Below, one piece after another: positions 1 through 52,482 of a DNA stretch of 64,000 nt. How positions within the stretch are numbered: the stretch's first letter is position 1; each line of letters begins with the position of its first letter. A model generated the notes under the pieces. It saw only the letters and a list, made by a program, of their open reading frames with translations, made no database searches and was not told the origin of the DNA. The DNA comes from a virus, in IMG/VR virus record IMGVR_UViG_3300017710_002137, positions 1-64,000 of that record; one strand, given 5' to 3'. Made by a program: the position numbers and the translations under genes.

Positions 1-311
1 AAGAAGGAGAACGAAAGTTTATAATGGAATCATTAAGAGATGTGGATTATGTTTATGTAATGAATCCACTTATACATGGAGATGATACAGCAATTGATTT
101 CATTGACCATGCAAAACATAAATGGCATACTACATATAGTGATGATATAAAAGGTAAAATGGCTTTTGGTAATGGTGGAGATAGAACAGAAACAACCACA
201 CCAGAAAACGATGTATGTAATTCATATGGAATAGAATCAGTATGGGGATTGGGAGATAAAGTACAATCTTCATCTTGGTTATTAGAAAAATATTTAAACA
301 TAGCAGAATAA
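1..311 (+). CDS. Cytidylyltransferase-like (RfaE domain II/TagD-type) protein, C-terminal part; gene begins upstream of the window
   Basis: Frame is open from the window edge (EGERKFIMESLRDVDYV). Carries FGNGGDR and a terminal KVQSSSWL motif typical of this nucleotidyltransferase family. Confidence 0.7.
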   Translation, partial: EGERKFIMESLRDVDYVYVMNPLIHGDDTAIDFIDHAKHKWHTTYSDDIKGKMAFGNGGDRTETTTPENDVCNSYGIESVWGLGDKVQSSSWLLEKYLNIAE

Positions 312-529
312 TGGATATAGAACGATTAGTAAAAGAGTTTCCAAATGATATGGAACTTGGTAAGGCAGTAAGAGAGATTTACTTACAAAGAGAAAAAATT
401 TTAGAAGAACATAAAGATATAAAAATATTTGAATCACCTGATAAGGGTAAAACGGTTTATGTTAGAGGTTGGGGACAACCTTCTTCAACAAGAAAAAAAG
501 TTACAAATCAATTAAACATATTTGAATGA
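311..529 (+). CDS. Hypothetical phage protein
   Basis: ORF 275..529. The ATG at 311 overlaps the previous stop (TAATG) and is the likelier start; ATGA overlap with the next gene. Confidence 0.6.
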   Translation: MDIERLVKEFPNDMELGKAVREIYLQREKILEEHKDIKIFESPDKGKTVYVRGWGQPSSTRKKVTNQLNIFE

Positions 530-39400: not shown

Positions 39401-40619
39401 TGCTGCAAAAATTGGTAGTGGAACTCAAAAGGGTAGTTTCTCAACTGCGTTTGCATTTGATACCGATGGTACGTTTTCTTTAAATAATGATTTTAGAATA
39501 AAAGGCTCATCATCTGGAATCGGGACTCGATTTAATACTATATCTACCAACTTCTCAGCGATTGATACTCGAGACGGTTTCTGTGTATTACCTGGTACTA
39601 AAATAATTTCTAAAAGAGGTGAGATAAATGTAGAAGATACAAAAGAAGATGATGTAATCAAAATATTTAACTTTGAAACCAAAGAATGGGGATGGTCATC
39701 TATTGATGAAATTATTACTAATAAAGTACAAGGATGGAGTAAGATAGAAACAGAATTAGGTAAAAAGTTAAAATGTTCTAATTCACATTTACTATATCAT
39801 CCTGATTATCCTAATTGTGAAATTTCTGTTGATAAACTCGGAGTTGGTGGTGAGTTGTATGTTTATGCTGATGGAAGATTAGTTATTGATAAAATAAAAA
39901 GTATAGAAACTTTTGATGAAGAAGTTGAGGTTTGGAATTATGAATTAGATGTAGTGCATAATTATATTTCAGATGGAATACTTTCACATAATATGTCTGC
40001 AAAATTAGACGCAGTTGTAACATTAGGACACGCATATAAAAAGAGAATATCGGAAAATATTTCAAGAGGTGATTTAGTAAAAGTAGATTCAAATAATGAA
40101 CTTATAAAAGTATCATCAGCAAAAGATACATCGGTGGTTGGTATTCTTTGGGAAAAATATGAATTAAAAATAACAAACCTAATAACTGGTTCCGTAGAGG
40201 ATGGATACACTCCTTTTACAGCATCAGAAGAAATGGTATCCGCTTCATATTTGGATTCATTTGGTAATTATTTAACAAATAATGAAACTGGTTCAAAAGA
40301 AATGTGGAGAGTAGCATCTCTTGGGGATAGTATTGAATGGAATATATCCGGTTCTTACTTTAGTTTAACAGGATTTAAAATGTGTAATCAAGGTGGTGAT
40401 GTTGTACCTGGTGATTTACTTTGTTCTTCAGATACTCCTGGTTATTTAATGAAACAACCATCAGAGTGGGTAGTAACAGGATTTAATGGAGATTCTACTC
40501 CAATTTACGAAGAAAGACAATCACAATGTTCTTATACAGTAGCAAAATCTATGGAATCATCTTCGTGGGATTCTAATGGTAAAATGGAAGGCGTGTACGG
40601 ATATCTATATTGTGGATAA
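33414..40619 (+). CDS. Giant tail fibre/adhesin-like protein with tandem beta-rich repeats, Hint domain and C-terminal chaperone-like domain
   Basis: 2401 aa, Ser/Thr/Gly-rich; about six ~110-120-aa repeats; Hint at aa 2057-2193; C-terminal GDLV..VVGI..GDLLCSS..PGYLMKQ..YTVAK domain. Confidence 0.8.
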   Translation: MAIIKKFSPFQNLSNFSTFVDDDNPNSEYFKITEFKETFTGGKNGFLIEGCPELKESSEVKIELLDVEGNPIYFEPGDGIPEYYEGTSKLISVHVYEDTPIGLGKITILGELKQYKDSFGALVDIPNEWRGVYNVKWERTFQVNKNLSNETTVRFYKRPSVTITELIKPIFSKSIPTVTDTGHVHGFSITPSVGENITTWRAGTSYGLRLTSGSWDVDVDENIITISNPSYQARIIEVLDSKQVLVDIPYTENNIVTDFESGSYSVTYTDFQNQVVGETSLTGSFAKVDISQLKTFVGDVARVKVFRKSRNAVGDFQFVQESKLESSELLRDITTTSDTELSYGRFDENNLTNYWVTSSDSHPTSINSDVLSQAVKIDYDENVGGVQRLITSESISVSSDVEYTLNFRTLLSGSLDDSGKTIRAFFSSSNFTQDFTTISGSAIYRARQNISENIISQNTGDAKLVFEVQGSDWYISNVSLRNAQESSFSPDEFTLIQDIPRKTASETFDFRFEFYDINNNYIPVDVSAVGVFNGGNDFPTSAKLLTFESDRNAFRFSSGSVQNPKNQQIQLKITQNNLTGSILFESSAFDVDGNYLNPNDYTQYPGLLTGVNPAGGLITINNFTGSRTDNSPTPFVGSVIYTASLENLQEFETVYRLEDGDNAPQLIVTSNANQFTYEPTALEPKPSGQSITVRAQRKNLASLITPIEINSGSNKPKLNYVDTVNGIDTYTLTATTFSASFSDNSFDEVTYSFTGSDVFGNKQSDEITISKVVNFDGVSITLTNDSTTFRANGQGAVLDNFASGDGEVEVRIANKEIQHSDGLTSPNRFDIVSATATNVTEAYSSYTTNEYGISSLSADSGSLILSVKYLAGDNSTSQSFQKKVNYTKNRIASPSIVFDTTNKTQNVDAKSTGAQLSSFDSSTMAIREFYTGSLTSFSSANIDLTITSGSNDVSGNPLVTRSGLSLSYGELPNNTNSTQVGLTATVTDSEGTSREVSDTVSLSKTNASAPNVEIQVYPSSQTITANSVGSGSATPSNLSIVVSEGGTTRTISSIGTITTTGGLSVNTPTSPFTTISFTSDASDMTSDTGTITIPVTTTNSEGSSVTKTITAIVTRAREGETPVLVTLTPQAQTITANSLGSGSESPQTISVSAKQGSTDVFDSMTVSYSGGIGGTISSNNLTFTDTASDMTSDTETITFAVTYTDSAGDTSTENITANISRTRAARPNVEVSVSPTGQTIEANSRGSGSATPQTLTVRALEGGTSRFEEITNVSFSNGLDGDDSPLSNTVAFTSTATDMTSDTGTATVTVSYQDSEGTLGTKDVIATVSRVRVAQPGINFSVTPAAQTIAANSNGTLTGTIQDVRVDGFEGNSALTYNQGTLSAGQYKITNVTGVSVSDTTPSDENIDITGFSGDSATGTAFIGFKDNEGTTGTTTIKFTLSKSKKATPVVAISANPQSQTVDSNSAFSSVGTPSAVTIIVNEGGSNYTHTTGTVTANKFKITGVTNGTNNNDGTITPTTPSDANGTTSVVTLSYTNSEGREFTSKTITVNVGVAVQGDDGAAGPGITFVGDCSDLASTFTWTSDENTRQVTKVGSSYYITKDAADGVAKSTTGCPGDTGWGTYFETMTSFASVATDVLFAQDVYANKTVNIGTSPNGTEPVIALNADASNDYANPYIGIGTSAYNGTGIFLGYNSDVAKLSLKSSTNSLLWDGTNLTVNGGGTFSGDLSAAGGTFEGSLSVGSGDDILKVDSSGNLHIGDANYADAPFKVSNDGTLTATGATISGAITITSGDTADAIAQAKSVADAATGSAATALSAAQGAQQDVDNLNIPTVPTTFNPNNLSNVGTPSVSGLHLGEDKMGFYNATAPAGWKSYLDSSGNFFLAGTNSGAAAPLSFTGTTGILSVTTGATIGGWTIDSNSIHTGTKGSSGNFTSAGAITIGSSGFISANGFYIDTDGNFVQETTKTKLKKDGVATPRALSNLFDIDSSEIFIKTAAKIGSGTQKGSFSTAFAFDTDGTFSLNNDFRIKGSSSGIGTRFNTISTNFSAIDTRDGFCVLPGTKIISKRGEINVEDTKEDDVIKIFNFETKEWGWSSIDEIITNKVQGWSKIETELGKKLKCSNSHLLYHPDYPNCEISVDKLGVGGELYVYADGRLVIDKIKSIETFDEEVEVWNYELDVVHNYISDGILSHNMSAKLDAVVTLGHAYKKRISENISRGDLVKVDSNNELIKVSSAKDTSVVGILWEKYELKITNLITGSVEDGYTPFTASEEMVSASYLDSFGNYLTNNETGSKEMWRVASLGDSIEWNISGSYFSLTGFKMCNQGGDVVPGDLLCSSDTPGYLMKQPSEWVVTGFNGDSTPIYEERQSQCSYTVAKSMESSSWDSNGKMEGVYGYLYCG
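36085..38090 (+). repeat. Tandem degenerate ~110-120-aa repeats (Ig-like, inferred) in the fibre protein
   Basis: Recurrent P-x-x-QT(I/V)xANS(x)GSGS, A(S/T)DMTSDT (three copies) and (D/N)SEG motifs; boundaries approximate. Confidence 0.8.
39582..39992 (+). other. Hint (intein-like/BIL-type) autoprocessing domain, 137 aa, without endonuclease
   Basis: Starts CVLPGTKI (block A), CSNSH (block B), VWNYEL..HNY..GILSHN (blocks F/G); the next residue is Met. Confidence 0.92.
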
Positions 40620-40629
40620 AAAATAATTA

Positions 40630-41622
40630 ATGAAGGTTTTTGTAACAACAGGTTGTGGTAACATCATTCAAGGTGGTGCTGATATGTGGACTAATAATTT
40701 TATAGAATTAGTTTTACCTCATCTTTCTGAATACTATATTTTGGTAGATTCTAAAAAACCAATTGGATGGAAAGATACATATCATCTTGAGAAAAGTGGT
40801 AAATTACACTTTCACTTAGAAAACGAAGAAAAAACAGATTTTATTTTAAGAGTTTGTAAGGAAATTCATTTCTTACATGCAAACTACCATAAAAGAGAAC
40901 ATCTTTGGAAACATAAAGATAAGTGGGGAACTATTTTTGTACAAGCATATTTACCAGATATGTTAGATTATGGAGATTCACTAAGACAGTTTAATACAAG
41001 TGTAGTAGAAGAAGATGTAGATTATTTACTTACTCATTGTAAGAAAAGAATTTGGATTGGAAATAATCCTTCTCGTATCTTTGGTAAGTTTAAAACTGAT
41101 ACCATACCAAACTTTTATGAATTTAAACAAAATAAACCATTAAATAAAATTAATAATAAACTTGGATTTACTTCTCGAATTGAATCAAGAAAAAATGTGC
41201 ATTATTTAGATGGATTACCATCTTATGTTTTGAGTGGTTACTATGATTGGAAAAACATATCTGAAACGAACAGGTTTGATTTCTCTAAGGTTAAATACTT
41301 TAAATGGAACATTGATATACTTGAATCGTTTATGAACCTTAAATGGAGTATTTCACATTCATGTCATACTAACGAACCATTTGGTTACTCCATCTTTCAG
41401 GCAGTAGATTGGGGTAAGTTGCCTATCTTAGATGAGAATTGGGGAGAAGTTGATTACAAATATAGAGCATCTACCAAACAAGAATTTAAAGAAGTGTATG
41501 AAACTATATTATCAGATAATCATGAAACACACTTAAAACAATTTAATAATTTAAAACAATATTTAAAATCCTTTGATGATAAAAATAGGTGGTCATCGGA
41601 GGTTGTTAGTATTTTTAATTAA
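40630..41622 (+). CDS. Putative GT-B (GT4-like) glycosyltransferase
   Basis: N-terminal GG, SRIESRKN, and EPFGYSIFQAVDWGKLPI (variant of the EPFG..E-A...G-P motif). Confidence 0.7.
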   Translation: MKVFVTTGCGNIIQGGADMWTNNFIELVLPHLSEYYILVDSKKPIGWKDTYHLEKSGKLHFHLENEEKTDFILRVCKEIHFLHANYHKREHLWKHKDKWGTIFVQAYLPDMLDYGDSLRQFNTSVVEEDVDYLLTHCKKRIWIGNNPSRIFGKFKTDTIPNFYEFKQNKPLNKINNKLGFTSRIESRKNVHYLDGLPSYVLSGYYDWKNISETNRFDFSKVKYFKWNIDILESFMNLKWSISHSCHTNEPFGYSIFQAVDWGKLPILDENWGEVDYKYRASTKQEFKEVYETILSDNHETHLKQFNNLKQYLKSFDDKNRWSSEVVSIFN

Positions 41623-41633
41623 TATATTTTTAT

Positions 41634-41770
41634 ATATTTATATACGTTTACTGATTTTGACCATACTTATAAACATGGGGGTTTGGGGGTAGTGCAAGAC
41701 ACTAAGACAACTGACAAATAAAAAGACAAATTAAATACCTATAACTAAGACACTAAAGTAGTTATGACAC
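41634..41770 (+). promoter_or_regulatory. Structured leader: late-type motifs, G tracts/5-codon uORF, six GACA repeats, hairpin over the start codon
   Basis: ATATTTATA at 41634, ATACTTATA at 41663; GACA at 41698, 41706, 41713, 41725, 41749 and 41766; stem ATAACTA/TAGTTAT. Confidence 0.5.
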
Positions 41771-42546
41771 TATTCAATCTCGATTTTTTGCGTGAACATT
41801 TAACGAATAATCAAATACCTCAAACTGATGTAAATGGTAATGAGTTTCATGTTCACAAACCTGTTCCTTATAGATGGACTCATGGAGCAACTGACTTAAC
41901 TCTTGGTGATGGGTTGTTAATTTATTCTATAATTCATTACATGAGAGCAAAAGTTTGTGTTTGTTTGGGTAGTGGTGGTGGATTCATTCCAAGAATCATG
42001 ACACAAGCAAGGGTTGATTTATATGATTCACAAATATTTGAAGGAAATAGAGATTATAATTGGGGAGATATAGGTTGTACTTATCTTGTTGATGCTGATA
42101 ATGGTGTGGGTGGGAATGTTGATTGGAAAGATGAAAACTCTTTTTTAAGAAAAAACTTTTTTCCAAGAATTATATTAGATACAACTGAAAACGCATATTA
42201 TAACTTTTTTGTTAAAGAAGATATCAAGATAGATTATCTACATATAGATGCTGGACATTCATACGAGGATGTTCATAATGATTTCACACTTTATTCAAAG
42301 ATATTATCTCCACATGGAATTATATCAATACATGATACTGATGTATCTTTTGAAAAAGATTTAATTGTAACCGAAGATGTTAAATCTAAAGATGACCAAG
42401 ACAATATTACAAATGGCCCCTCAAAATTAATTGAAGAATTGAAATCAAATAAAGATTGGGAAATTTTCAACTTTTTTAATAACGGTATATTTAAGACTAA
42501 ACCGAGTTCTACTGGTTTGACAATTCTTCAAAGATGCAGAAAATAA
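41764..42546 (+). CDS. Class I SAM methyltransferase (Methyltransf_24-like)
   Basis: CLGSGGG, IDYLHIDAGHSYE and GIISIHD motifs. Confidence 0.85.
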   Translation: MTLFNLDFLREHLTNNQIPQTDVNGNEFHVHKPVPYRWTHGATDLTLGDGLLIYSIIHYMRAKVCVCLGSGGGFIPRIMTQARVDLYDSQIFEGNRDYNWGDIGCTYLVDADNGVGGNVDWKDENSFLRKNFFPRIILDTTENAYYNFFVKEDIKIDYLHIDAGHSYEDVHNDFTLYSKILSPHGIISIHDTDVSFEKDLIVTEDVKSKDDQDNITNGPSKLIEELKSNKDWEIFNFFNNGIFKTKPSSTGLTILQRCRK

Positions 42547-43376
42547 ATTTGGTTACAGTTGTTGGGCACAACACTACACTTCTTTCACATATGATAAACC
42601 ACTACAAAGATATCGTTGATGATATTTATGTTGTTGTTTATAGACAACACTCACTTGATGGAATATTAGAAGAGGTACTTAATCTTGGTATCAAACCATA
42701 TAAAGTAGTAACAGAAAAAAAATTTAATTGGGAAAGAGTAACTCAATTATACAACGAAGTAAAGCAAACCAAACCCGATGAGTGGTGGGTGGTTTCGGAC
42801 GATGATGAACTTCATGTTTACCCAAAACCCTTAAGAGAACTTATTACAGAATGTGATGAGAATGGGTGGGAGTTTATCACAGGAGGATTCCTCGATAGGA
42901 TAGGAGAGGATGGTGAGTTTCCTTTGGTAACAAAAGAAACTAATATTTGGGAATCGTTTCCATTTGCTGGATTTTTTAGATATCCAATGAGTGGAGCGAT
43001 GCCAAATAAATGTTGTGTAATGAAAGGTTCTGTGGATGTAACACCTGGTCAACACTTTGCTGTGATTGGTGATACTGATACTTGGAGAGAACGAGGATGG
43101 AATCATCCTAAAAGATATCCTATTGAAAAAGGATTAATCCAAGTACATCATTTTAAATGGGATTCAACTGTTTTAAAAAGATTAAAAGAAGTTTCAGAAA
43201 CAAAAAAAGATTATTCCTTTTGGAAAGAGTACAAAAAAATGTACAGAGCCATTCAAGTATTTGATTGGAAAATAGATGTGAATAATCCTGAGTTTATGTT
43301 TGAAAGAATGGGAGATAGTGGATACTTTGATTATATGAAGTGGAAAGAACTCTCAGATGTTATAGTAAAAATCTAA
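42534..43376 (+). CDS. GT-A fold glycosyltransferase (GT2/GT92-like)
   Basis: INHYK, WWVVSDDDE (DxD), GQH and VHHFKW motifs. Confidence 0.75.
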   Translation: MQKINLVTVVGHNTTLLSHMINHYKDIVDDIYVVVYRQHSLDGILEEVLNLGIKPYKVVTEKKFNWERVTQLYNEVKQTKPDEWWVVSDDDELHVYPKPLRELITECDENGWEFITGGFLDRIGEDGEFPLVTKETNIWESFPFAGFFRYPMSGAMPNKCCVMKGSVDVTPGQHFAVIGDTDTWRERGWNHPKRYPIEKGLIQVHHFKWDSTVLKRLKEVSETKKDYSFWKEYKKMYRAIQVFDWKIDVNNPEFMFERMGDSGYFDYMKWKELSDVIVKI

Positions 43377-44837
43377 ATGAAAGATAAGTTAGCGATAATA
43401 GTTCCGTATAGAGATAGACAAGACCACTTAGATGTCTTTGTTCCTCATATGCACGAGTTCCTCAAAGATAAAGGAATCGAATACACTATTTTTATTGCCG
43501 AACAAACAGATGATAGACCATTCAACTATGGAAAACTGTGTAACATAGCATCAAAAGAAGTTGGAGAAGAATACACTTACTTTGCTTTTCACGATATCGA
43601 TATGTTACCAATGAATGATGAGTGTGATTATGGTTATCCTGAATCACCAACTCATTTAGCAAGTAATGTTGAGGCACATGGTGGTGAATTACCTTACCCA
43701 CAATACTTTGGTGGTGTTATTCTAATGAGTAGAGAAGATTTCGAAACAGCAAACGGATATTCAAATGAATATTGGGGTTATGGTTTTGAAGATTTAGATT
43801 TACTTTACAGATTAGAAAGAAGTGGTGCTTACTTAGAAAAAAAATATGATTTAAATAATGTATATTCTAACTATGATGAGTTAGATGTTCTACCATATAG
43901 GATTGAAAATGTAAATGTTTGTAATGAGAAACGAATTCAACAAATGGAATACAATACATTTTCTGAAAGTGATTACATATATGGATTACTAAATCCACTT
44001 ACTAAAAAAATGGTTAAAGATTCGTTTAGTATTTCATTTTGGTTCAATGATGATTTTGAGCGTAAAATGAAAAAAAACTTATTTGTATTTGAAGGATGTG
44101 ATAGTGGATTGTTTTTGAGTAGGGGAAATGAAATAATAGCACAAATTTGGGATAATAAAGATAATCACGAAGAAATTATATTATCTTACTCAAGAAACAG
44201 ATGGAATCATTGTGTATATTCATATGATAGTAAAGAAAATATTTTAAAGTTATCTATAAACGATAAAACAAAAGAGATAAAATTAAAAGATAGTTTTGAG
44301 ATATATGATTACTCTAAAAATAATATAAAAATATCAGATGATTCCACATCTATAATGATATCAAATATTTTAGCGTTTGATTCTTACTTAAGTAATGAAA
44401 TTATAAACATATTATATAATAGAGGTAATTCATCTTTAGATGATATACATAATAAATTTGGGTTATCACCTGTAATAAACTTAAAATATAATTCTTTATA
44501 TAAACAATCAATTTTATTAGATAGTGGTTCTTACAAAAATCACTTAAAGTTTTATGGAAGTTTACAATCAGATAAATTAACATATACACCAAATGAATTA
44601 TATCTGCCAATAAGATTAGATTCTGAATATAAATCTTTAGTTCACAAAAACGATACAGATATAATAAAAAGATATTACGAATACGACCCGGATATTACAG
44701 AAAATTCTGATATATTTTTTCACGATGTGATTCCAAATAAATTAGATTATAAATCCATAGGATTGAGTACATTAAATTACAGTATATTAGATATACAAAA
44801 TAAAAAAAATTATGAACTTATTAGAATTGTTACATAA
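43377..44837 (+). CDS. GT7 (beta-1,4-galactosyltransferase-like) with internal LamG-like domain, copy 1
   Basis: IVPYRDR, FNYGKL, FHDIDM, YFGGV, NGYSNEYWGYGFEDLD; insert with FSISFWF..WNHCV; ends IGLSTLNY. Confidence 0.88.
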   Translation: MKDKLAIIVPYRDRQDHLDVFVPHMHEFLKDKGIEYTIFIAEQTDDRPFNYGKLCNIASKEVGEEYTYFAFHDIDMLPMNDECDYGYPESPTHLASNVEAHGGELPYPQYFGGVILMSREDFETANGYSNEYWGYGFEDLDLLYRLERSGAYLEKKYDLNNVYSNYDELDVLPYRIENVNVCNEKRIQQMEYNTFSESDYIYGLLNPLTKKMVKDSFSISFWFNDDFERKMKKNLFVFEGCDSGLFLSRGNEIIAQIWDNKDNHEEIILSYSRNRWNHCVYSYDSKENILKLSINDKTKEIKLKDSFEIYDYSKNNIKISDDSTSIMISNILAFDSYLSNEIINILYNRGNSSLDDIHNKFGLSPVINLKYNSLYKQSILLDSGSYKNHLKFYGSLQSDKLTYTPNELYLPIRLDSEYKSLVHKNDTDIIKRYYEYDPDITENSDIFFHDVIPNKLDYKSIGLSTLNYSILDIQNKKNYELIRIVT

Positions 44838-45369
44838 CGAAAAAGTTGTTAAAACTCTTGAAAAGATTGATAATGACTTGAAAGATTTAACAGAACCAAG
44901 TTCTGATGATAAATCTATATTTTTAAAAGTTATATTAATAGTTGAAACATTGTTCTTACAAAATAAAAACTCAAGAACAGCAAATATTGGTAGATTCTTT
45001 TCAAGATACTATGATAAACAAACAGATATTGATGATATCAATGAAGATATTAAAATGAAAACTGTAAAACGAGATGATATAAAATTTCGTTTAGATGATT
45101 TATCGGTAGAGAAAGAAAAGTTAGAATATAGATTACAAGAAATAAATGCAGAAATAGATACTAAACAATGGGAGCCTCAAAAAATAGAAGATGAGTTGGA
45201 GAACTTAAAATGGGAGCCTAAAAGATTACAAGATTGGATTGATGAGGCATCCTTTCCAATCGATAACGAAGGTCTTGAAGGTTTCATATTTGAAAAACTA
45301 AAAGAAGAATTAATTTATAACAAAAAACTAAATTACAATTATGGCAAAGAACGAGACAACGAAGGTTAA
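44812..45369 (+). CDS. Hypothetical coiled-coil protein
   Basis: 185 aa, charged and helical, with two WEP repeats. Confidence 0.55.
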   Translation: MNLLELLHNEKVVKTLEKIDNDLKDLTEPSSDDKSIFLKVILIVETLFLQNKNSRTANIGRFFSRYYDKQTDIDDINEDIKMKTVKRDDIKFRLDDLSVEKEKLEYRLQEINAEIDTKQWEPQKIEDELENLKWEPKRLQDWIDEASFPIDNEGLEGFIFEKLKEELIYNKKLNYNYGKERDNEG

Positions 45370-45607
45370 ATCTCTTGAAGAAAGAGGTGTAAAGGCCCTT
45401 GAATCTATTGCGGGTTCAATTGGAGACATCAACGATTGGTTGTATGAATTAGATGCTGATATGTGGCAAGAAAGATTGGAGTGGTACTTGAATGAGTTCT
45501 ACCAAATCGCTAAAACAAAAACAGTAGGAACAACAAATAGACCAGAAAGAGGTAGTGAAAGAATCCAAGAGAATACAGAAACTCAAGGAGAAGAAAGTAA
45601 ATCATAA
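45341..45607 (+). CDS. Hypothetical acidic protein
   Basis: 88-aa ORF overlapping both neighbours. Confidence 0.55.
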   Translation: MAKNETTKVKSLEERGVKALESIAGSIGDINDWLYELDADMWQERLEWYLNEFYQIAKTKTVGTTNRPERGSERIQENTETQGEESKS

Positions 45608-47006
45608 ACTTGGTATAATAGTTCCATATAGAGATAGAGAACAACAACTGAAAAGGTTCTTATCTCATATGAAAGATTATATTAAGGATATTGATTACGA
45701 AATCTTCATCATTGAACAGGCAGATGATAACCCTTTTAATAGAGGTAAACTTCTGAATGCAGGATATAAGTATGCCTTAGATAAAGGGTGCGATTATTTT
45801 GTATTTCACGATGTTGATATGTTGCCTGAAGATGTAGATTATTCGTATTCAGATAAACCTCTACATTTAGCAACACACTTACAAGAACACGATTACGAAA
45901 CCACATTTTTTGATTACTTTGGTGGAGTAACAATGTTTACAAAAGAAGATTTCAAAACTATCAATGGATTCTCAAACGAATATTGGGGATGGGGATTTGA
46001 AGATGATGATTTACTTATCAGATGTTTAGATTCAAATCTACAATTAGATATGGATTCAAATGGTAGCGATACTATTCAAGAAATAGAATCATTTAAATTT
46101 GATGGAAATGAATCCTTTATAAAATTAAGTACAGATAAAAAGTTACACTTATTGGAAGATGAGTTTACAATATCTGTAATGGTTAAACCTGAAAACATAA
46201 AATTGAGTGTTAATAAGGATTATGATGAATTTCCCATATTATCAATTCCTGGTTATAACATAGGATTGTTTTATAACTCATTTAGAAGATTCTTCTGTCA
46301 AGCATATGATGTTGATAAAAAATCACATTCAATATCAACTGATATTGTTGGTGATAGGTGGGTTCATTTAACAATGGTTTATGAAAATTCAGATACCTTA
46401 AAGTTTTATATGAATGGTGAATTGGTTAGTGTTGAAAAAATGAACAATGAGATACTACAATTACCTTCTAATGAAATATATGTTGGGATTGGAAATGGTA
46501 AACCAACAAATAAAGACTTCTTTTATGGATTAATATCGGGTATCGAGATATACGATATTGCACTTACTGATGATGAAATAGTTGAGATATATGAAAACCC
46601 AACAAAACCAAAACTTAGAAACTTTGGTAATTTTAAATCAAGTGAGTTTTTATATACACAAATATTACCACAATTATCATCATCCACTACTTGTATAGAC
46701 TTGGGTGGCAAATATGATGTTTATTTGAATAATATATATTTATATAAGAGTAGAGAATCATTTAAAACATTTTTGCCAAAACCACATAGAAGAAATTCTC
46801 GATTTGTATCACTTAAACATAAAAGCAACTCTTCGGTTGGTAATAAATGGATTCATAAAGAAACAAGAAAAAATCAATTAAAATACTATAACGATGTTAG
46901 AGAAGGAATTGATGATTTTAGAATAGATGGATTAAACACTCTCAGATATAAAGAAATTAAAAAAGAAGAAACTAACTTAGTTACTAAAGTACTAATAGAA
47001 CTATGA
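45555..47006 (+). CDS. GT7 with internal LamG-like domain, copy 2
   Basis: IVPYRDR, FNRGKLLN, FHDVDM, YFGGV, NGFSNEYWGWGFEDDD; insert FDG..FTISVMVK..WVHLTMVY..IYDIALT; ends DGLNTLRY. Confidence 0.9.
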   Translation: MKESKRIQKLKEKKVNHKLGIIVPYRDREQQLKRFLSHMKDYIKDIDYEIFIIEQADDNPFNRGKLLNAGYKYALDKGCDYFVFHDVDMLPEDVDYSYSDKPLHLATHLQEHDYETTFFDYFGGVTMFTKEDFKTINGFSNEYWGWGFEDDDLLIRCLDSNLQLDMDSNGSDTIQEIESFKFDGNESFIKLSTDKKLHLLEDEFTISVMVKPENIKLSVNKDYDEFPILSIPGYNIGLFYNSFRRFFCQAYDVDKKSHSISTDIVGDRWVHLTMVYENSDTLKFYMNGELVSVEKMNNEILQLPSNEIYVGIGNGKPTNKDFFYGLISGIEIYDIALTDDEIVEIYENPTKPKLRNFGNFKSSEFLYTQILPQLSSSTTCIDLGGKYDVYLNNIYLYKSRESFKTFLPKPHRRNSRFVSLKHKSNSSVGNKWIHKETRKNQLKYYNDVREGIDDFRIDGLNTLRYKEIKKEETNLVTKVLIEL

Positions 47007-47413
47007 TGAGTATGTATAACAGAGGTATAATTGCAGGAAATTTTGATGTAATCCATCCTGGTTATATAAAGATGTTTAAAGAATGCAAATCATATTGTAA
47101 ACAATTCATAATTCTTCTTCATACAGACCCATCAATCGAAAGACCAGAAAAATTAAAACCAATTCTTACTAAAGAAGAAAGAACAGAGGTTTTAAGTTCA
47201 ATAAAATTTATAGATTCAATAGCATACTACACATATGAAGATGAGTTGGTTAAATTAATAAAAGATTTAGAGCCAGATATCAGATTTTTAGGGGATGATT
47301 ATAGAGGCAAAACATATACTGGTTTTGAATTAGATATACCCGTTCATTATCTAAACAGAGACCATGGTTGGTCAACAACCAAGTTTAAAAAACTAATTGC
47401 AGATACACTATGA
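47003..47413 (+). CDS. Cytidylyltransferase (TagD/glycerol-3-phosphate CT-like)
   Basis: GNFDVIHPGY (HxGH variant), GDDY and WSTT motifs. Confidence 0.85.
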   Translation: MMSMYNRGIIAGNFDVIHPGYIKMFKECKSYCKQFIILLHTDPSIERPEKLKPILTKEERTEVLSSIKFIDSIAYYTYEDELVKLIKDLEPDIRFLGDDYRGKTYTGFELDIPVHYLNRDHGWSTTKFKKLIADTL

Positions 47414-48858
47414 AGTTAGGAGTTTGTGTACCATATAGAAACAGAGAAGCACACCTTAAAGAATTTATACCAAGAATTGGTAAGTACCTTGAGGATAGGG
47501 GAATTGATTATCAAATTTATTTTGGTCATCAGGTAGATGATAAGTTGTTCAATAGAGGAGCAACAAAAAATATCGCTGCTGAGTGGGCATTTAAGGAAGG
47601 GTGTGATTATGTTGTGTGGCATGATATAGATATGATACCTGAACAAGGTGGGGGAGCTGATTATAGTTTTCCAAAAGAAAACCCAAGACATATCGCTACA
47701 CAAATTTCACAAATGAACTATGATTTAAAGTACGAAGAATATTTTGGAGGAGCTATTTTATTTTCCAAAGAACAAGTAGAGAGAACAAATGGTTATAGTA
47801 ATGATTATTGGGATTGGGGCATGGAGGATGATGACCTCTTTTGGAGGTGTGTCCTCGAAGGTTACACAAAAACAGATGTTATGGATTATACAACGAAACC
47901 CCAATCTTTTCTCTCGTTTAATGGTAAAGGTTCACATATAGAAATACCATGTACAAGACAATTAAGAAACTTGACTTCTCGTTCACATACAATCTCAGTA
48001 TTAGTTAGAGCACATCAACAAGAAGAAAAAGTTCCTATTTGGTTAGTTGGTGATATGGAAAGAAGATTTTGTGAGTATCCAATACTTCGTAGACCAGGTT
48101 ATGATTATGGGTTAAGTTACAACAATTCAAGAACTTACACAGCACAACTTTGGAATAATCAAAGAAATCACATCTATCAATGGATGAAGAATTATGAAAA
48201 CAGATGGGCGTGGATAACTCTTGTTGTAGATGAAAACAAAATTCATTTTTATATGAATGGAAAAGAATCTGATGCAAGATGGGGAACAGGAACACATTCA
48301 CCACAAGAATTTGAAGGTATGTTAAAACGATATGGTAATAAAAGTTATTACTTAGGAACAACAACATCAGTACCCGATGATGAACCTTCAAAGTGGTTTA
48401 GTGGAGATATTGCAGATGTTAGAATGTGGAATAGAGCCTTAACATCTGAAGAAGTATCAAATATACATAATGAAGTTGAAAATGATGGTTTAATCCTTCA
48501 TTATGATTTTGAAAATGGTTTAGTGATGGATAAATCAGATAATGATAATGATGGTATCAGTCATGATTGTGAATTTAAAACAGAAGAAATACAAATACCA
48601 CACACAACAGTACCACATAGAGTACCTGGTAGAATGTTTTGTTTAGAACATAAAGATGAAGGTTTGGTAAAGAACGAACATGGAAAAGATGTGTGGGCAA
48701 AAGGTGAAACAACTGCAAGAAATGAAAAAAGATTTGTACATCAAATGCAACAAGGAAAGTGGGATTATAAATCAGATGGTATGAATTCTTTAAAATACGA
48801 ATTAGTAAGTGTAGAAGAGATTACACCCAAAGCTAAATTTATTAATATTAAACTATGA
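47410..48858 (+). CDS. GT7 with internal LamG-like domain, copy 3
   Basis: VPYRNR, FNRG, WHDIDM, YFGG, NGYSNDYWDWGMEDDD; insert with FSGDIADVRMWNRALT..LILHYDFE; ends DGMNSLKY. Confidence 0.9.
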   Translation: MKLGVCVPYRNREAHLKEFIPRIGKYLEDRGIDYQIYFGHQVDDKLFNRGATKNIAAEWAFKEGCDYVVWHDIDMIPEQGGGADYSFPKENPRHIATQISQMNYDLKYEEYFGGAILFSKEQVERTNGYSNDYWDWGMEDDDLFWRCVLEGYTKTDVMDYTTKPQSFLSFNGKGSHIEIPCTRQLRNLTSRSHTISVLVRAHQQEEKVPIWLVGDMERRFCEYPILRRPGYDYGLSYNNSRTYTAQLWNNQRNHIYQWMKNYENRWAWITLVVDENKIHFYMNGKESDARWGTGTHSPQEFEGMLKRYGNKSYYLGTTTSVPDDEPSKWFSGDIADVRMWNRALTSEEVSNIHNEVENDGLILHYDFENGLVMDKSDNDNDGISHDCEFKTEEIQIPHTTVPHRVPGRMFCLEHKDEGLVKNEHGKDVWAKGETTARNEKRFVHQMQQGKWDYKSDGMNSLKYELVSVEEITPKAKFINIKL

Positions 48859-50273
48859 GTAAAGTAATAGGTAATAACTTTAAAGAAATGAAACAGAAGT
48901 TAGATTCTGTTGGGTGTGGGTTTTGTTTAGCAAAATGGACACAAGTTACTATGCATTTACACGATGGTACTACACATTCATGTCACCATCCAGCTCCACA
49001 TAAGATTGGGTTACGAGAAATAAAAAGAAATCATACAGCGTTACATAATAGTTCTCATAAGAAAAGAGCTAGAAAAGAAATGTTGGAAGATAAACGACCA
49101 AAGGAATGTGGATATTGTTGGAAAGTTGAAGATAACTCAAATTCTTTTTCTGATAGAATTTTTAAATCAGAAGAATCGTGGTCAAAACCATATTTTAATG
49201 AAATAAAGAATTCTCAATGGAGAGATGATTACTTACCAAAATATGTAGAAGTATCTTTTTCTAATACTTGTAATTTTAAGTGTGGATATTGTGGGCCTTC
49301 ATATTCTTCAAAATGGGTTGAGGAAATGAGAAAACATGGAGAGTTTTCCACAGGTGATAATTTTAATTCACTTACAACATTAGAAAAAGAAGATACAATA
49401 CCATATAAAAAAACAGAACATAATCCATATGTAGAGGCGTTTTGGAAATGGTGGCCAGAACTTTACCAAAGTATGGATACATTTAGAATAACTGGTGGTG
49501 AACCATTACTTTCAAAAGATACGTTTAAAGTTTTAGATGAAATAATTGAAACCGATGAACCTAATACCAACTTAAAATTATCAGTAAATAGTAATCTTTG
49601 TGTTGATGATAAACTTATAGATAAATTTATAGAAAAGGCTAAAGTAATTATCAAAGAAAAAAGAGTAAAAGAATTTATATTATATACATCAGTTGATACC
49701 TATGGTGAACAAGCTGAATATATTAGATTTGGATTGGATTTTAAACAATTATTTGATAACATCGATAAAGTACTAACAGAGATACCTGAAATGACTATTG
49801 TTGTTATGTCTACTTTCAATATTTTTTCACCATTTAATTATGAAAAATTATTAAGAAAAATATATGATTACAAAGTAAAACATTTTAATACAAAAAGATA
49901 TTGGAATTCTCCTTTAATATTAGATACATCATACTTAAGATATCCAGATTTTTTAAGTTTTAGATTACTAAAAGGATATTTAGATATTTCTTACTTTGAT
50001 AAGTTAGAAAAGTATATGAAGTTTTTTTCATCGTATAGAAGCTTGAATTCATATCAATTACAAGAGCCAACAGATAGTGGATTTTCATTAAAAGAAATAG
50101 AAAAGATATCAAGAATAAAAGATATTTTTATTGAAGATGATAAATCAGATGTAGAATTTTCTTTAGGTAAGAAAAAGTTTAAACACTACATTGCAGATTA
50201 TAAACAAAGAAGAGGATTAGATTGTGAAAAAACTTATCCTGAAATGAGTGAATTTATAAAAAATATAAAATGA
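48855..50273 (+). CDS. Radical SAM protein with N-terminal twitch/SPASM-like Cys domain
   Basis: CNFKCGYC and TGGEP; N-terminal CLAKW..CHH..CGYCW. Confidence 0.9.
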   Translation: MSKVIGNNFKEMKQKLDSVGCGFCLAKWTQVTMHLHDGTTHSCHHPAPHKIGLREIKRNHTALHNSSHKKRARKEMLEDKRPKECGYCWKVEDNSNSFSDRIFKSEESWSKPYFNEIKNSQWRDDYLPKYVEVSFSNTCNFKCGYCGPSYSSKWVEEMRKHGEFSTGDNFNSLTTLEKEDTIPYKKTEHNPYVEAFWKWWPELYQSMDTFRITGGEPLLSKDTFKVLDEIIETDEPNTNLKLSVNSNLCVDDKLIDKFIEKAKVIIKEKRVKEFILYTSVDTYGEQAEYIRFGLDFKQLFDNIDKVLTEIPEMTIVVMSTFNIFSPFNYEKLLRKIYDYKVKHFNTKRYWNSPLILDTSYLRYPDFLSFRLLKGYLDISYFDKLEKYMKFFSSYRSLNSYQLQEPTDSGFSLKEIEKISRIKDIFIEDDKSDVEFSLGKKKFKHYIADYKQRRGLDCEKTYPEMSEFIKNIK

Positions 50274-51016
50274 TAATAAATTATAAACAACCATATTGGA
50301 TAAAATATGAATGGGATTTGGGAGAACACAAAGACCATCAATATGTTACAGAATTTAACAAAAGTGAATCAGATAAAATATCTAATTTATTTCACCAACT
50401 AAATTATTCAATTAATATTGATTTTAAGTTGGATAAAGATTTGGAATCTGATAACATCTTCTGTATATTTGGAAAACCTGGTAAAAACTTTGGATTAACA
50501 TACAACCAAGAAGCTGATACTTTAGCTTTAGAGTTTTGGACGGAAGCCACAACAAAAGTTGCAGGTGATGACTTTAAGTATTTACCATTTCATGGTGTGA
50601 AATACGATGAATTATCTAAGGGTGTTGTTATAACAATTATTAGAAATAATGATGAGTTCATCATATATAAAAATTTTGAAAAAATAGGTGAAATTGATTT
50701 TGATAAAAACTTAATCGATGATTACCGAACCGAAGGGTTATACTTGGGTACAGGCAATCCTGGTACAGAAGTACCTGAACATAGATATCATGGTTCTGTT
50801 GATATAGATACATTATTCTTTATCGAAGATATAACAGATATTGATATTGTGAAAAAAGTATATGAAACTGATGTTAATAATTTAAATAAGTTGGATGAAT
50901 ATAAAAATATTATATTTAATTATGATTTCAATACAATTAATAATCAAGGAATCATATATGATAATTCAGAAAACGCGTTTTTTATAGAACAAGTACCAAG
51001 TGAATTTATAAAATAG
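50270..51016 (+). CDS. Stand-alone LamG/ConA-like domain protein
   Basis: Beta-rich, with PG.N.GL.YN, LYLG.GN and IFNYDF segments resembling the inserts in the GT7 genes. Confidence 0.55.
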   Translation: MIINYKQPYWIKYEWDLGEHKDHQYVTEFNKSESDKISNLFHQLNYSINIDFKLDKDLESDNIFCIFGKPGKNFGLTYNQEADTLALEFWTEATTKVAGDDFKYLPFHGVKYDELSKGVVITIIRNNDEFIIYKNFEKIGEIDFDKNLIDDYRTEGLYLGTGNPGTEVPEHRYHGSVDIDTLFFIEDITDIDIVKKVYETDVNNLNKLDEYKNIIFNYDFNTINNQGIIYDNSENAFFIEQVPSEFIK

Positions 51017-51024
51017 GAAATAAT

Positions 51025-52482
51025 ATGTCAACAGAAAGTTTAAGAAAATGGAGAGATGAAAATCTCAATAGTATATCACCAAGTTTTTGTGCAGCAAAAT
51101 GGTACAATGTATCTTTACACTTAGGACATGGTTTTAAAAACTCGTGTCATTTACCTTTACCACATCCAATTGATGTAGAAAAGTTAAAAGATAGACCGAG
51201 TGAATTACACAATACAGATTTCTCAAAAAGACAGAGAAAGATGATGTTAGAAGGTAAAAGACCAGCCGAATGTTCTTATTGTTGGAAGATTGAGGATATT
51301 GGTAGAGATAATATCGCTGATAGAATTTATAAATCAAGAATCTATAAAGAAGAAGATATTGCAGCTATAAAAGATGTTCCATGGGATGCTGATATTATTC
51401 CAAAAACCATCGAAGCTTCCTTTGATAGAGTTTGTAATTTTGCTTGTTCATATTGTAACGCAGGATACTCAACTACATGGGGTAAGGATATTGATAAGTT
51501 CGGACCTTATCAAAAGTTTAAATCCGTATCAGCTGGAGCATATCAAAACAATGGAGAATGGGCGGATGCTAATGGTAAATACAATGAACAAAATCCATAT
51601 GTAGATGCTTTCTTAAAATGGTGGCCAGAATTAATCGAAGGAGGATTGGAAGAAATAAGAATTACAGGTGGTGAACCATGTGCATCTCCAAACTTTTGGA
51701 GTTTCTTGGATACCATGAAAGATTACCCATCTGAAAAACTTAGATTGGCTGTAAATTCCAATTTAGGTGGTAACTTTAAAAGAATACAACGATTAATTGA
51801 TGCATCATATCAGTTACCAATTAAAGAATTTGATTTATATACATCTAATGAATCATTCGGAGCTCATGCTGAATATATTAGAGATGGGTTAATTTATCCT
51901 GAATGGAGAAGTCATATGGTTGCGTTTCTTGAAGGAGTAAATAAAGATATATTTCGTTCTTTAACAGTAATGATGACAATTAACTCACTATGTTTATTCT
52001 CAATAGATGAATTCTTAGATGATATGATTGTATTAAAAAGAAAATATGGTTCTAATAGACCTAATGTTGATTTTAATATCTTAAGATGGCCAGCATTTAT
52101 GTCTCCATTAGCATTACCAAATGATGTAAAGGAATTCTTACACAATAAATTAAAAACTTGGTTTGAAACAAGAAAACAAGATAAAGATTTTTATCAGTTA
52201 TTTAGTGATGGAGAAATTGCACAGATAGAAAGATTAGTAGATTACATTGAAGTTGTACAAACAGGTCATGTTACTACTGAAGGAGAAAATGATACTCACT
52301 TTCACGATTTTAAATCATTCTATGAACAATATGATAAAAGAAGAGGTAAGGATTTTTGTAAAACCTTTCCAGAACTTGCAGTGTGGTATAATAAAATAGA
52401 GGTTGATAAAACAATACCAGATGTACCTATTAAACCAGGAGATATAACTCACTACGAAGATGGTGAATATAAACCAAACTAA
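51025..52482 (+). CDS. Radical SAM protein, paralog of 48855..50273
   Basis: CNFACSYC and TGGEP; N-terminal CAAKW..CH..CSYCW. Confidence 0.9.
   Translation: MSTESLRKWRDENLNSISPSFCAAKWYNVSLHLGHGFKNSCHLPLPHPIDVEKLKDRPSELHNTDFSKRQRKMMLEGKRPAECSYCWKIEDIGRDNIADRIYKSRIYKEEDIAAIKDVPWDADIIPKTIEASFDRVCNFACSYCNAGYSTTWGKDIDKFGPYQKFKSVSAGAYQNNGEWADANGKYNEQNPYVDAFLKWWPELIEGGLEEIRITGGEPCASPNFWSFLDTMKDYPSEKLRLAVNSNLGGNFKRIQRLIDASYQLPIKEFDLYTSNESFGAHAEYIRDGLIYPEWRSHMVAFLEGVNKDIFRSLTVMMTINSLCLFSIDEFLDDMIVLKRKYGSNRPNVDFNILRWPAFMSPLALPNDVKEFLHNKLKTWFETRKQDKDFYQLFSDGEIAQIERLVDYIEVVQTGHVTTEGENDTHFHDFKSFYEQYDKRRGKDFCKTFPELAVWYNKIEVDKTIPDVPIKPGDITHYEDGEYKPN

Follow-up and report, generated by a model that had tools for sequence, protein, structure and literature searches.

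The DNA analysed here is the first 64 kb (positions 1 to 64,000, hereafter the window) of the 81-kb IMG/VR record IMGVR_UViG_3300017710_002137, which comes from an uncultured seawater phage and is 41% complete according to CheckV. The window has a GC content of about 30%, and 51 plus-strand open reading frames (ORFs) of at least 100 amino acids (aa) lie wholly within it. Three genes in this window encode glycosyltransferases of CAZy family 7 (GT7), the family of the animal β-1,4-galactosyltransferases (B4GalT), each interrupted within its catalytic fold by a LamG-type domain. A preliminary description, made from the sequence alone, had proposed three GT7 ORFs each split by a LamG-like domain, and the ORFs, Pfam, eleven relatives that lack the insert and structure models of copies 1 and 2 bear this out. 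The three genes and their parts are the following.

43377..44837, plus strand: copy 1, GT7-LamG enzyme of 486 aa, with Pfam 7N and 7C matches and an AlphaFold (AF2) model; most divergent clade (FNYG, YWGYG, EDLD).
43848..44615, plus strand: insert of copy 1, residues 158-413 (256 aa), seen as a gap run against insert-less relatives; LamG/pentraxin-like β-sandwich in the model.
44643-44645, plus strand: H423 of copy 1, counterpart of the conserved His of copy 2.
45555..47006, plus strand: copy 2, GT7-LamG enzyme of 483 aa, GTG start at 45555, with Pfam 7N, 7C and Laminin_G_3 matches and an AF2 model.
46059..46790, plus strand: insert of copy 2, residues 169-412 (244 aa), seen as a gap run; LamG/pentraxin-like β-sandwich in the model.
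46818..46820, plus strand: H422, the conserved His of copy 2, aligned with the His of MIRH in B4GalT1.
47410..48858, plus strand: copy 3, GT7-LamG enzyme of 482 aa, identified by Pfam and by one full-length stretch of the family hidden Markov model (HMM), positions 3-474.
47878..48621, plus strand: insert of copy 3, residues 157-404 (248 aa), seen as a gap run; Pfam Laminin_G_3.
48649-48651, plus strand: H414 of copy 3, counterpart of the conserved His of copy 2.

By sequence, all three copies belong to CAZy GT7, since Glyco_transf_7N and Glyco_transf_7C both score above their curated Pfam cut-offs (27 and 23 bits) in copy 1 (5.1e-23, 81.6 bits and 1.8e-17, 63.2 bits), copy 2 (9.7e-24, 83.9 bits and 1e-20, 73.6 bits) and copy 3 (5.1e-15, 55.7 bits and 1.1e-19, 70.2 bits). 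The 7C match ends at profile position 62-63 of 78 in every copy. Laminin_G_3 (cut-off 27.6 bits) was found in copy 2 (65.4 bits, 8.2e-18) and in copy 3 (53.2 bits, 5e-14, residues 172-350) but falls below the cut-off in copy 1 (21.2 bits, E 3.4e-4), whose insert nevertheless has a LamG/pentraxin-type sandwich fold in its model.

The catalytic motifs are placed along the chains as the preliminary description had them: PYRDR or PYRNR, FNRG (FNYG in copy 1), HD(I/V)D, YFGG and EDDD ahead of the insert, then SLVH, SLKH or CLEH followed by GLSTLNY, GLNTLRY or GMNSLKY (copies 1, 2 and 3, respectively) behind it. Its observation that copy 1 carries EDLD instead of EDDD was right, but copy 1 also has GLS rather than GLN and YWGYG rather than YWGWG. 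PYRxR, FNxG, HDxD, YFGG, the xD of EDDD and the His were kept in 21 of 21 orthologues examined, and the complete EDDD in all 14 orthologues of copies 2 and 3. In B4GalT1, DxD is the metal and nucleotide-sugar motif, EDDD holds the catalytic base, the His is a metal ligand at the hinge of a flexible lid, and the Arg of FNR and the Asp after the His contact the donor sugar. The Tyr before FGG, which in B4GalT1 favours hexose over N-acetylhexosamine donors, is present in all three window copies. Titles of PDB entries name the B4GalT1 mutants Met344His, Trp314Ala and Arg228Lys; these positions have been studied, and the titles are silent on their roles.

The start of copy 2 was placed at the GTG at 45555, which is preceded by AAGAGG and is the sole in-frame start ahead of the PYRDR strand. 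Starting there, the gene overlaps the end of an upstream 88-aa ORF by 53 nt. Other gene callers give the protein 445 aa (P0009-P0017, an ESM Atlas record), with an ATG at residue 39 that would remove the first strand and the PYRDR motif.

The limits of the inserts were set against 11 insert-less relatives of about 215-230 aa, which align unbroken with the N-terminal core plus the C-terminal tail of the three copies. The resulting inserts of 244-256 aa come close to the 220-250 aa first estimated. In this 14-row alignment (the three copies and the 11 relatives) the tail His, Gly and Tyr are invariant in all rows, and the His is at least 90% conserved in a family alignment of 53 rows, which excludes a chance match. 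A profile of the 14-row alignment, from which the insert columns had been dropped, matches B4GalT1 (2ae7_A) as one stretch (E 8e-63), with profile positions 8-225 on chain residues 64-283, 'grylsLkH' aligned on 'GRCRMIRH' and the DGLN motif on the DGLNSLTY of B4GalT1. With copy 2 alone the tail match to B4GalT1 was seen, but it was not significant by itself. An insert-less 219-aa ORF on the viral contig L013 matches the family HMM at positions 2-157 and 432-473.

Structure models were obtained for copies 1 and 2, and the case for copy 3 rests on Pfam and its full-length family-HMM stretch. AlphaFold modelled copy 2 (53-row alignment) with a mean predicted local distance difference test (pLDDT) of 92.3 and a predicted template modelling score (pTM) of 0.87, and copy 1 (54-row alignment) with 92.3 and 0.83. 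Aligned with VIA-align on B4GalT1 (1tvy_A), copy 2 gave Z 27.9 and a root-mean-square deviation (rmsd) of 2.9 with 220 of 272 residues aligned over model residues 8..483, and copy 1 gave Z 28.8 and rmsd 1.8 with 213 of 272 aligned over 1..486. Since the local Foldseek match to B4GalT1 is limited to 152 columns of the N-terminal part, the tail must supply the other residues of these whole-chain alignments, and it rejoins the core. The copy 2 insert (model residues about 175-409) resembles PAPP-A (Z 23.0, rmsd 2.6, 206 aligned), 4dqa (Z 22.3) and PTX3 (Z 19.8), and that of copy 1 (about 188-406) the same three (PAPP-A Z 20.6, rmsd 2.4, 193 aligned; 4dqa Z 20.1; PTX3 Z 18.2). The pentraxins PTX3, SAP and CRP were matched with Z 17-20, and 4dqa is annotated as a putative carbohydrate-binding protein. 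Residues G311, G325 and D382 of the insert (copy 2 numbering) are at least 90% conserved across the 53 family members.

Strands 165-169 and 416-419 border the insert in the model of copy 2. The corresponding strands of B4GalT1 are only about six residues apart in the alignment, so that the insertion site reads as a hairpin turn, and it lies 7-10 residues ahead of the His. The alignment, the profile and the models are three independent lines of support for a discontinuous GT7 fold, interrupted by a LamG-type β-sandwich and completed by the tail; the models of copies 1 and 2 show the discontinuous GT-A domain, the β-sandwich and the completing tail that the preliminary description had expected. 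Two other ideas about the insert were dropped. A circular permutation, suggested by a YDF...D.S..N.G motif at the insert end, was abandoned because PAPP-A and 4dqa both align with the complete insert in the same order along the chain. Derivation from the phage's own structural LamG domain, in a 1923-aa protein, was not supported (hhalign probability 7%, E 0.005).

Core and tail together have the fold of animal B4GalT1 and B4GalT7 (1tvy, 1nf5, 2ae7, 6fwt, 4irq, 3lw6; Z 26-29, 192-221 residues aligned), with 31-35% identity over the structural alignment. PFRNR/PYRDR, FNR, DVD, YFGG, WGWGxEDDD, the His of MIRH and DGLNSLTY are shared. Unlike the animal enzymes, the phage copies lack the membrane anchor, the stem and the first 50 or so residues of the catalytic domain (copy 1 begins to match at chain residue 178), carry 244-256 aa of LamG in place of a six-residue turn, and would work in the cytoplasm rather than in the Golgi. 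The insert-less GT7-like phage and bacterial proteins of about 220 aa (P0191, P0197, P0206 and the 219-aa protein of L013) have the same core and tail, are 38-46% identical to copy 2 and close the turn without a LamG domain. GT7-like cores also occur in giant viruses (Mimivirus LCMiAC01 A0A481YZG5, Megaviridae A0A5J6VLB6, Aureococcus anophagefferens virus A0A076FM45), with 30-40% identity over 164-169 columns. Unlike the phage copies, none of the 50 BFVD matches listed, giant viruses among them, spans core and insert together (best query-normalised TM-score 0.39).

Lectin-type modules on glycosyltransferases are known, and published papers describe a ricin-type module on GalNAc-transferases (PMC4432651), a C-terminal lectin on MGAT4A (PMC9296478) and a PA14 domain on the GT7 member B4GALNT3 (PMC11254600). 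With these the phage enzymes have in common a GT-A domain joined to a module of carbohydrate-binding type, which in those enzymes steers or regulates substrate choice. They differ from all three in that the module sits inside the catalytic fold and is of the LamG/pentraxin fold.

All nine viral loci with a match to the full length of copy 2 (L004-L012) carry the three copies together. A 36-row tree, which included the 219-aa L013 protein and excluded two ORF pieces from L011 and one 234-aa LamG-only ORF, resolved three clades (support 100/100, 100/99 and 100/99), that of copy 1 on a branch of length 1.95. Judged from this tree and these loci, the copies are old, conserved paralogues. The two L011 pieces (314 and 178 aa, L011 9995-11450) are a split copy 2 orthologue, which may reflect a frameshift, an error of sequencing or gene decay.

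Cores of different clades are 42-53% identical, against 17-24% for the inserts and 23-25% for the tails; the corresponding figures for members of one clade are 82-93%, 45-72% and 65-78%. The preliminary description had attributed different specificities to the diverged inserts. The inserts do diverge more than the core, but conserved pocket residues in core and tail differ between the paralogues too, and the inserts are therefore not the sole candidate source of differing specificity. The copy 1 clade has FNYG, WGYG, xDLD (where x is E, Q, V, S or H) and an Asp three residues past the His; the copy 2 clade FNRG, WGWG, EDDD and an Asn at that position; the copy 3 clade FNRG, WDWG, EDDD and a Glu. 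The EDLD of copy 1 retains the Asp aligned with the second residue of the B4GalT1 EDDD, and its clade varies at the preceding Glu. Taken with the B4GalT1 contacts given above, these pocket differences suggest that the copies may use different donors, which we regard as a lead and not as a result.

A word-indexed protein search gave 2461 proteins at E <=0.001 among 6903 candidates. Among the best 120 of the 2461, 119 carry all three Pfam families and one is a 357-aa fragment; none is meaningfully named, and cluster look-ups of P0017, P0009 and P0083 returned no names. An exhaustive search of representatives at 50% identity gave 13121 proteins at E <=0.001, 417 of them at <=1e-30. When the best 150 representatives were sorted with the family HMM, 63 had core, insert and tail, 30 core and tail without insert, 42 the core only, 8 an insert-like region only and 4 core and insert without a matched tail, and 3 were fragments. 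In the ESM Atlas at least 19 clusters of at least 50 members carry the same three Pfam families, labelled 'Viruses 100%' with Uroviricota the commonest. Among 50,697 deposited phage genome records, a set that may omit records of this genome or very near ones, tblastn gave no match to copy 2 (E limit 1e-5) or copy 3 (E limit 1e-3). Some relatives are tandem GT7 proteins with two or three cores per chain (P0127, P0141, P0169, P0146): P0127 (450 aa) consists of two insert-less core-plus-tail units and P0146 (1686 aa) has three cores.

In a scan of species genomes, 3 of 75 confirmed loci cover core and tail, among the matches listed. One of these contigs (L015, CBFHJJ010000001.1, 248 kb, binned as Flavobacteriaceae) has a baseplate wedge homologue (E 1.4e-29) at 96.5-98.4 kb and, at 166-179 kb, the same block of methyltransferase, GT2-like gene, two GT7-LamG genes and radical SAM genes found around the window copies; given the baseplate homologue and the gene order, it is most likely a large phage genome in a bacterial bin. 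The second (L014), a 23-kb contig of a Pelagibacterales metagenome-assembled genome (MAG), has the same gene order. The third (L018, 24.8 kb, from a Spirochaetales MAG) carries two GT7-LamG genes on opposite strands beside a 913-aa FkbM-methyltransferase-radical SAM fusion, another radical SAM gene, a methyltransferase and an ABC-2 permease; this locus is perhaps genuinely bacterial, and a possible bacterial home of the same pathway. Among 301 Flavobacteriaceae genomes, full-length matches were found only in the MAG that holds L015, none of the 300 other genomes sampled showed the design and one had the core only, again among the matches listed. Matches of some kind were seen in 208 of the 301 genomes, nearly all to the insert region only (E down to 1.6e-19), inside open frames of 346-4556 aa, and such domains are very common in the giant ones of 1000-4500 aa. 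The design is thus frequent in viral metagenomes and rare in cellular genomes, so that the counter-case named in the preliminary description, an architecture already common in cellular genomes, did not arise.

That description also knew of no account of the architecture, and no paper describing a LamG domain inserted in a GT7 fold was found. PMC12619734, on moraphages, reports four glycosyltransferase groups; in its main text the words galactosyltransferase, laminin and concanavalin are absent, as are immuto, Mel-JY01, Flavobacterium and Microcystis. The main text of PMC12801897 contains no galactosyltransferase, LamG, laminin, concanavalin or 'family 7', and the passages of PMC11706807 on glycosyltransferases, LamG and cyanophages are unrelated to the design. 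The parts are thus known, and Pfam flags their combination automatically in metagenome catalogues; the insertion of LamG in GT7 is unreported in the papers found.

In sequencing archives, 14 DNA runs from 11 studies of seawater or viral metagenomes contain 0.97-0.99 of the sampled words. Each of the 14 is flagged as a possible source of the present assembly and therefore adds no independent evidence. Four RNA-library runs (3 studies) yielded contig pieces on parts of all three genes, some without a differing letter: 44426-44576, 44602-44752 and 46180-46330 (X18), and 46081-46231, 47797-47947 and 47945-48109 (X15). As such libraries may also contain DNA, these contigs are no proof of transcription, and stretches of the genes without a contig piece carry no information.

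The phage was at first read as T4-like from PHROG matches in the window to a baseplate wedge protein, a primase and an SbcC-like nuclease. Among deposited records, the wedge protein has its closest relatives in Microcystis phage Mel-JY01 (41%), an uncultured 484-kb phage (40%) and Flavobacterium phage immuto (37.5%), and in view of these the phage is called only a large myovirus-type phage; its baseplate points to phages of Flavobacteriaceae or of cyanobacteria. The three enzyme genes belong to a conserved gene block in the structural region, just after the fibre gene.

33414-40619: giant fibre gene, directly upstream of the block.
40630..52482, plus strand: conserved gene block around the three GT7-LamG copies, defined by Pfam and by gene order in the viral loci L004-L012.

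The block reads orf330, Methyltransf_24, GT2-like, copy 1, orf185, orf88, copy 2, cytidylyltransferase, copy 3, radical SAM, LamG alone, radical SAM. This order is kept in L004-L012, except that in L008 and L009 (18.1-20.0 kb) copy 3 and the cytidylyltransferase are found some 7 kb farther along, downstream of the radical SAM genes; their joint shift indicates that the pair moves as a unit. Compared with L012, copy 1 and orf185 are 95-96% identical (window 43377-45369 against L012 7823-9812), copy 2 75% and copy 3 83%, while against L004 the pattern is reversed, with copy 1 at 59% (L004 7742-9803), copy 2 at 84% and copy 3 at 86%. The block is mosaic, and these opposite patterns suggest that a module has been swapped by recombination.

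From 40630 to 63967 there are 24 plus-strand ORFs with a length of 100 aa or more, and a simple hydropathy scan found no transmembrane-like segment in any of them; the remaining 17 kb of the record add one plus-strand ORF with a single such segment. Over the whole 81-kb record just three plus-strand ORFs of that size have a transmembrane-like segment, one each. The fibre has a Ser plus Thr share of 24.8%, the highest of 38 ORFs tested (median 11.8%), which rises to 40% in residues 1001-1200. Fibre matches lie upstream of the block also in L004, L005, L007, L008, L010 and L012, and the C-terminal part of the fibre is variable across related loci (25% to 82% identity).

Behind copy 3 the block ends in a conserved trio that includes a free-standing relative of the inserts.

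48855-52482: conserved trio of radical SAM gene, 248-aa LamG-like gene and radical SAM gene.
50270..51016, plus strand: free-standing 248-aa homologue of the inserts, found by hhalign against the family alignment; between the two radical SAM genes.

The 248-aa ORF has no Pfam match. Against the family alignment, hhalign placed its residues 25-235 on positions 178-389 with a probability of 96.9% (E 1.5e-10). There is a 4-nt overlap with the stop of the preceding radical SAM gene, and the ORF is kept in L004, L005, L007, L011 and L012, with an insert-like 234-aa ORF in its place in L006. Other ORFs stand at this position in L008 and L009 (about 457 aa) and in L010, L014 and L015 (255, 266 and 194 aa; relation unclear). 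A complex prediction of the 248-aa protein with the upstream radical SAM enzyme scored 0.48 (runs 0.40, 0.48 and 0.52; best of three controls 0.01), with runs agreeing in at least 55% of contacts and a partner pLDDT of at least 82. In the calibration of the tool, 58 of 80 solved complexes passed this mark, as did 2 of 110 mismatched pairs; with a score of 0.60 or less, only 7 of the 80 passed, along with both of those mismatches. As the present prediction used small alignments of our own, these counts apply only roughly. The prediction thus lends weak support to binding between the two proteins.

What might these enzymes do? The explanation we favour, as somewhat better than an even bet, is that the three copies are active GT7 transferases with a rigid, target-recognising LamG module, that they act at different steps of a cytoplasmic glycan pathway, and that a virion target is to be preferred. 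The enzymes are soluble and probably active, metal-dependent GT-A transferases of CAZy GT7 with a minimal core of about 220 aa. The LamG sandwich of about 245-255 aa sits in the turn between the strand after the EDDD helix and the strand into the His and the lid. Each enzyme would transfer a hexose from a uridine diphosphate (UDP)-sugar with inversion, and the rigidly packed module would recognise or hold the target, a glycan or a glycosylated protein, in cis, much as the lectin domains of polypeptide GalNAc-transferases do. In those enzymes the lectin module is appended at the chain end. It is plausible that the insert selects the acceptor. The three paralogues, which differ in insert and in pocket residues, would serve different steps, and the product would be assembled in the cytoplasm. 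In favour of this explanation count the split fold, the kept active-site motifs, the low dN/dS of the core, the conserved paralogy, the lack of membrane segments in the pathway, the fibre gene next to the block and the use of the same module in a free-standing protein.

As for the target, a virion protein such as the Ser/Thr-rich giant fibre comes first in our estimate, at slightly under an even chance, with a host envelope glycan next and somewhat below it. The virion is preferred because the pathway is all-soluble, because it lies behind the Ser/Thr-rich fibre gene, and because virion glycosylation has a precedent in mycobacteriophages, as cited in PMC12619734. A more specific version, which we hold to be rather unlikely as a whole, is that the LamG insert is a built-in target reader for stepwise cytoplasmic glycosylation of the phage's own fibre, the free LamG protein serving the radical SAM enzymes in the same way. 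By means of its insert, each paralogue would read what the step before had produced and then attach a further sugar, a logic similar to that of the animal lectin-guided GalNAc-transferases but built by domain insertion into the GT7 fold.

Several points weigh against the favoured explanation. The canonical ligand rim of LamG/LNS domains lies opposite the domain termini, and in these enzymes it would point away from the core. Nor do copy 1 and the C-terminus of the fibre vary together: towards L012 copy 1 is 95% and the fibre C-terminus 25% identical, and towards L004 59% and 82%. The two enzymes of L018 stand with radical SAM, methyltransferase and ABC-2 permease genes, which fits an exported product better than a virion protein. 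Ser/Thr-rich fibres are common and prove nothing. Finally, the insert evolves faster than the core (the median pairwise ratio of nonsynonymous to synonymous substitution, dN/dS, is 0.20-0.57 for the insert, against 0.08-0.12 for the core and 0.16-0.29 for the tail, figures that are rough because dS is probably saturated at such distances), which is also compatible with a weakly constrained structural domain.

The alternative that survives best, although we consider it less probable than the explanation above, is that the block serves, during infection, to alter a lipid-carried polysaccharide of the host envelope (such as O-antigen or capsule), with the LamG domains reading the growing lipid-linked glycan. 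The host's own initiating enzyme and exporter would then be used. The permease of L018 and the absence of joint variation of copy 1 with the fibre C-terminus leave room for this alternative, and the frequency of insert-like LamG domains in giant Flavobacteriaceae frames speaks for it as well. Against it stand the lack of any polytopic membrane protein, flippase, polymerase or permease among the plus-strand ORFs of 100 aa or more in the 81-kb record, the position of the block directly behind the fibre gene, and the fact that the PF06182 protein of L018 is no proven polysaccharide exporter.

A rather less likely alternative takes the insert for a protein-docking module and not a lectin, which would arrange the enzymes in a pathway assembly line or dock them on a phage protein, the free copy doing the same for the radical SAM enzymes. 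The occurrence of the same domain between two radical SAM genes, with its 4-nt overlap, fits docking, as do the predicted binding to the upstream radical SAM enzyme and the presence of LamG/pentraxin domains of protein complexes (PAPP-A, PTX3) among the best structural matches. By the tool's own calibration, however, a pass as weak as this one is wrong in the majority of cases unless the interaction was likely to begin with, and the closest small-domain match, 4dqa, is annotated as carbohydrate-binding.

We think it improbable that copy 1 has ceased to be a normal transferase, whether through weakened catalysis that leaves a lectin-like protein or through a change to a very different donor. 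The Glu of its EDDD motif is not conserved (E, E, Q, E, V, S and H in seven orthologues) and its third residue is always Leu; FNRG and WGWG have become FNYG and WGYG; and its clade has the long branch and the highest insert dN/dS (0.57). Yet PYRDR, HDID, YFGG, the second-position Asp, the His and the Asp three past it are kept in 7 of 7, core dN/dS is 0.12, the model lies within an rmsd of 1.8 of B4GalT1, and insert-less relatives also vary at the third motif position (EDSD, EDND, EDED).

Equally improbable is a role of the insert in catalysis itself, as a built-in counterpart of α-lactalbumin that contacts the lid and reshapes the acceptor pocket: the insertion point just ahead of the His at the lid start, the pTM values, which suggest fixed packing of insert and core, and the lactose synthase structures (1nf5, 4l41) among the best core matches speak for it, but pLDDT drops only mildly in the lid of copy 2 (residues 421-448), to 82 for residues 421-430. 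Lactose synthase, in which α-lactalbumin is a second body near the lid of B4GalT1 that alters the acceptor, is a functional analogy only; α-lactalbumin is a separate, lysozyme-like, reversible binder, whereas the phage body is a covalently inserted β-sandwich.

To our knowledge, GT7 is known almost entirely from animal Golgi enzymes. The minimal GT7 core is here a frequent phage protein, with a whole lectin-type domain inside the catalytic fold beside the metal-binding lid. New in the present analysis are the clade-specific pocket differences, the contrast in rate between core and insert, the homology of the free LamG protein to the inserts by profile comparison, together with its weakly predicted binding to a radical SAM enzyme, and the abundance of insert-like domains in giant Flavobacteriaceae proteins. 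The family is a natural experiment in fusing a targeting module into a GT-A enzyme, with the insert-less relatives as controls, and the enzymes may serve as soluble, anchor-free GT7 catalysts. It also opens a way into a phage sugar pathway that is large, conserved and so far unstudied, next to a giant fibre gene. A virion target would take phage virion glycosylation well beyond the mycobacteriophage case; with a host envelope target, the pathway would bear on how marine phages remodel cell surfaces.

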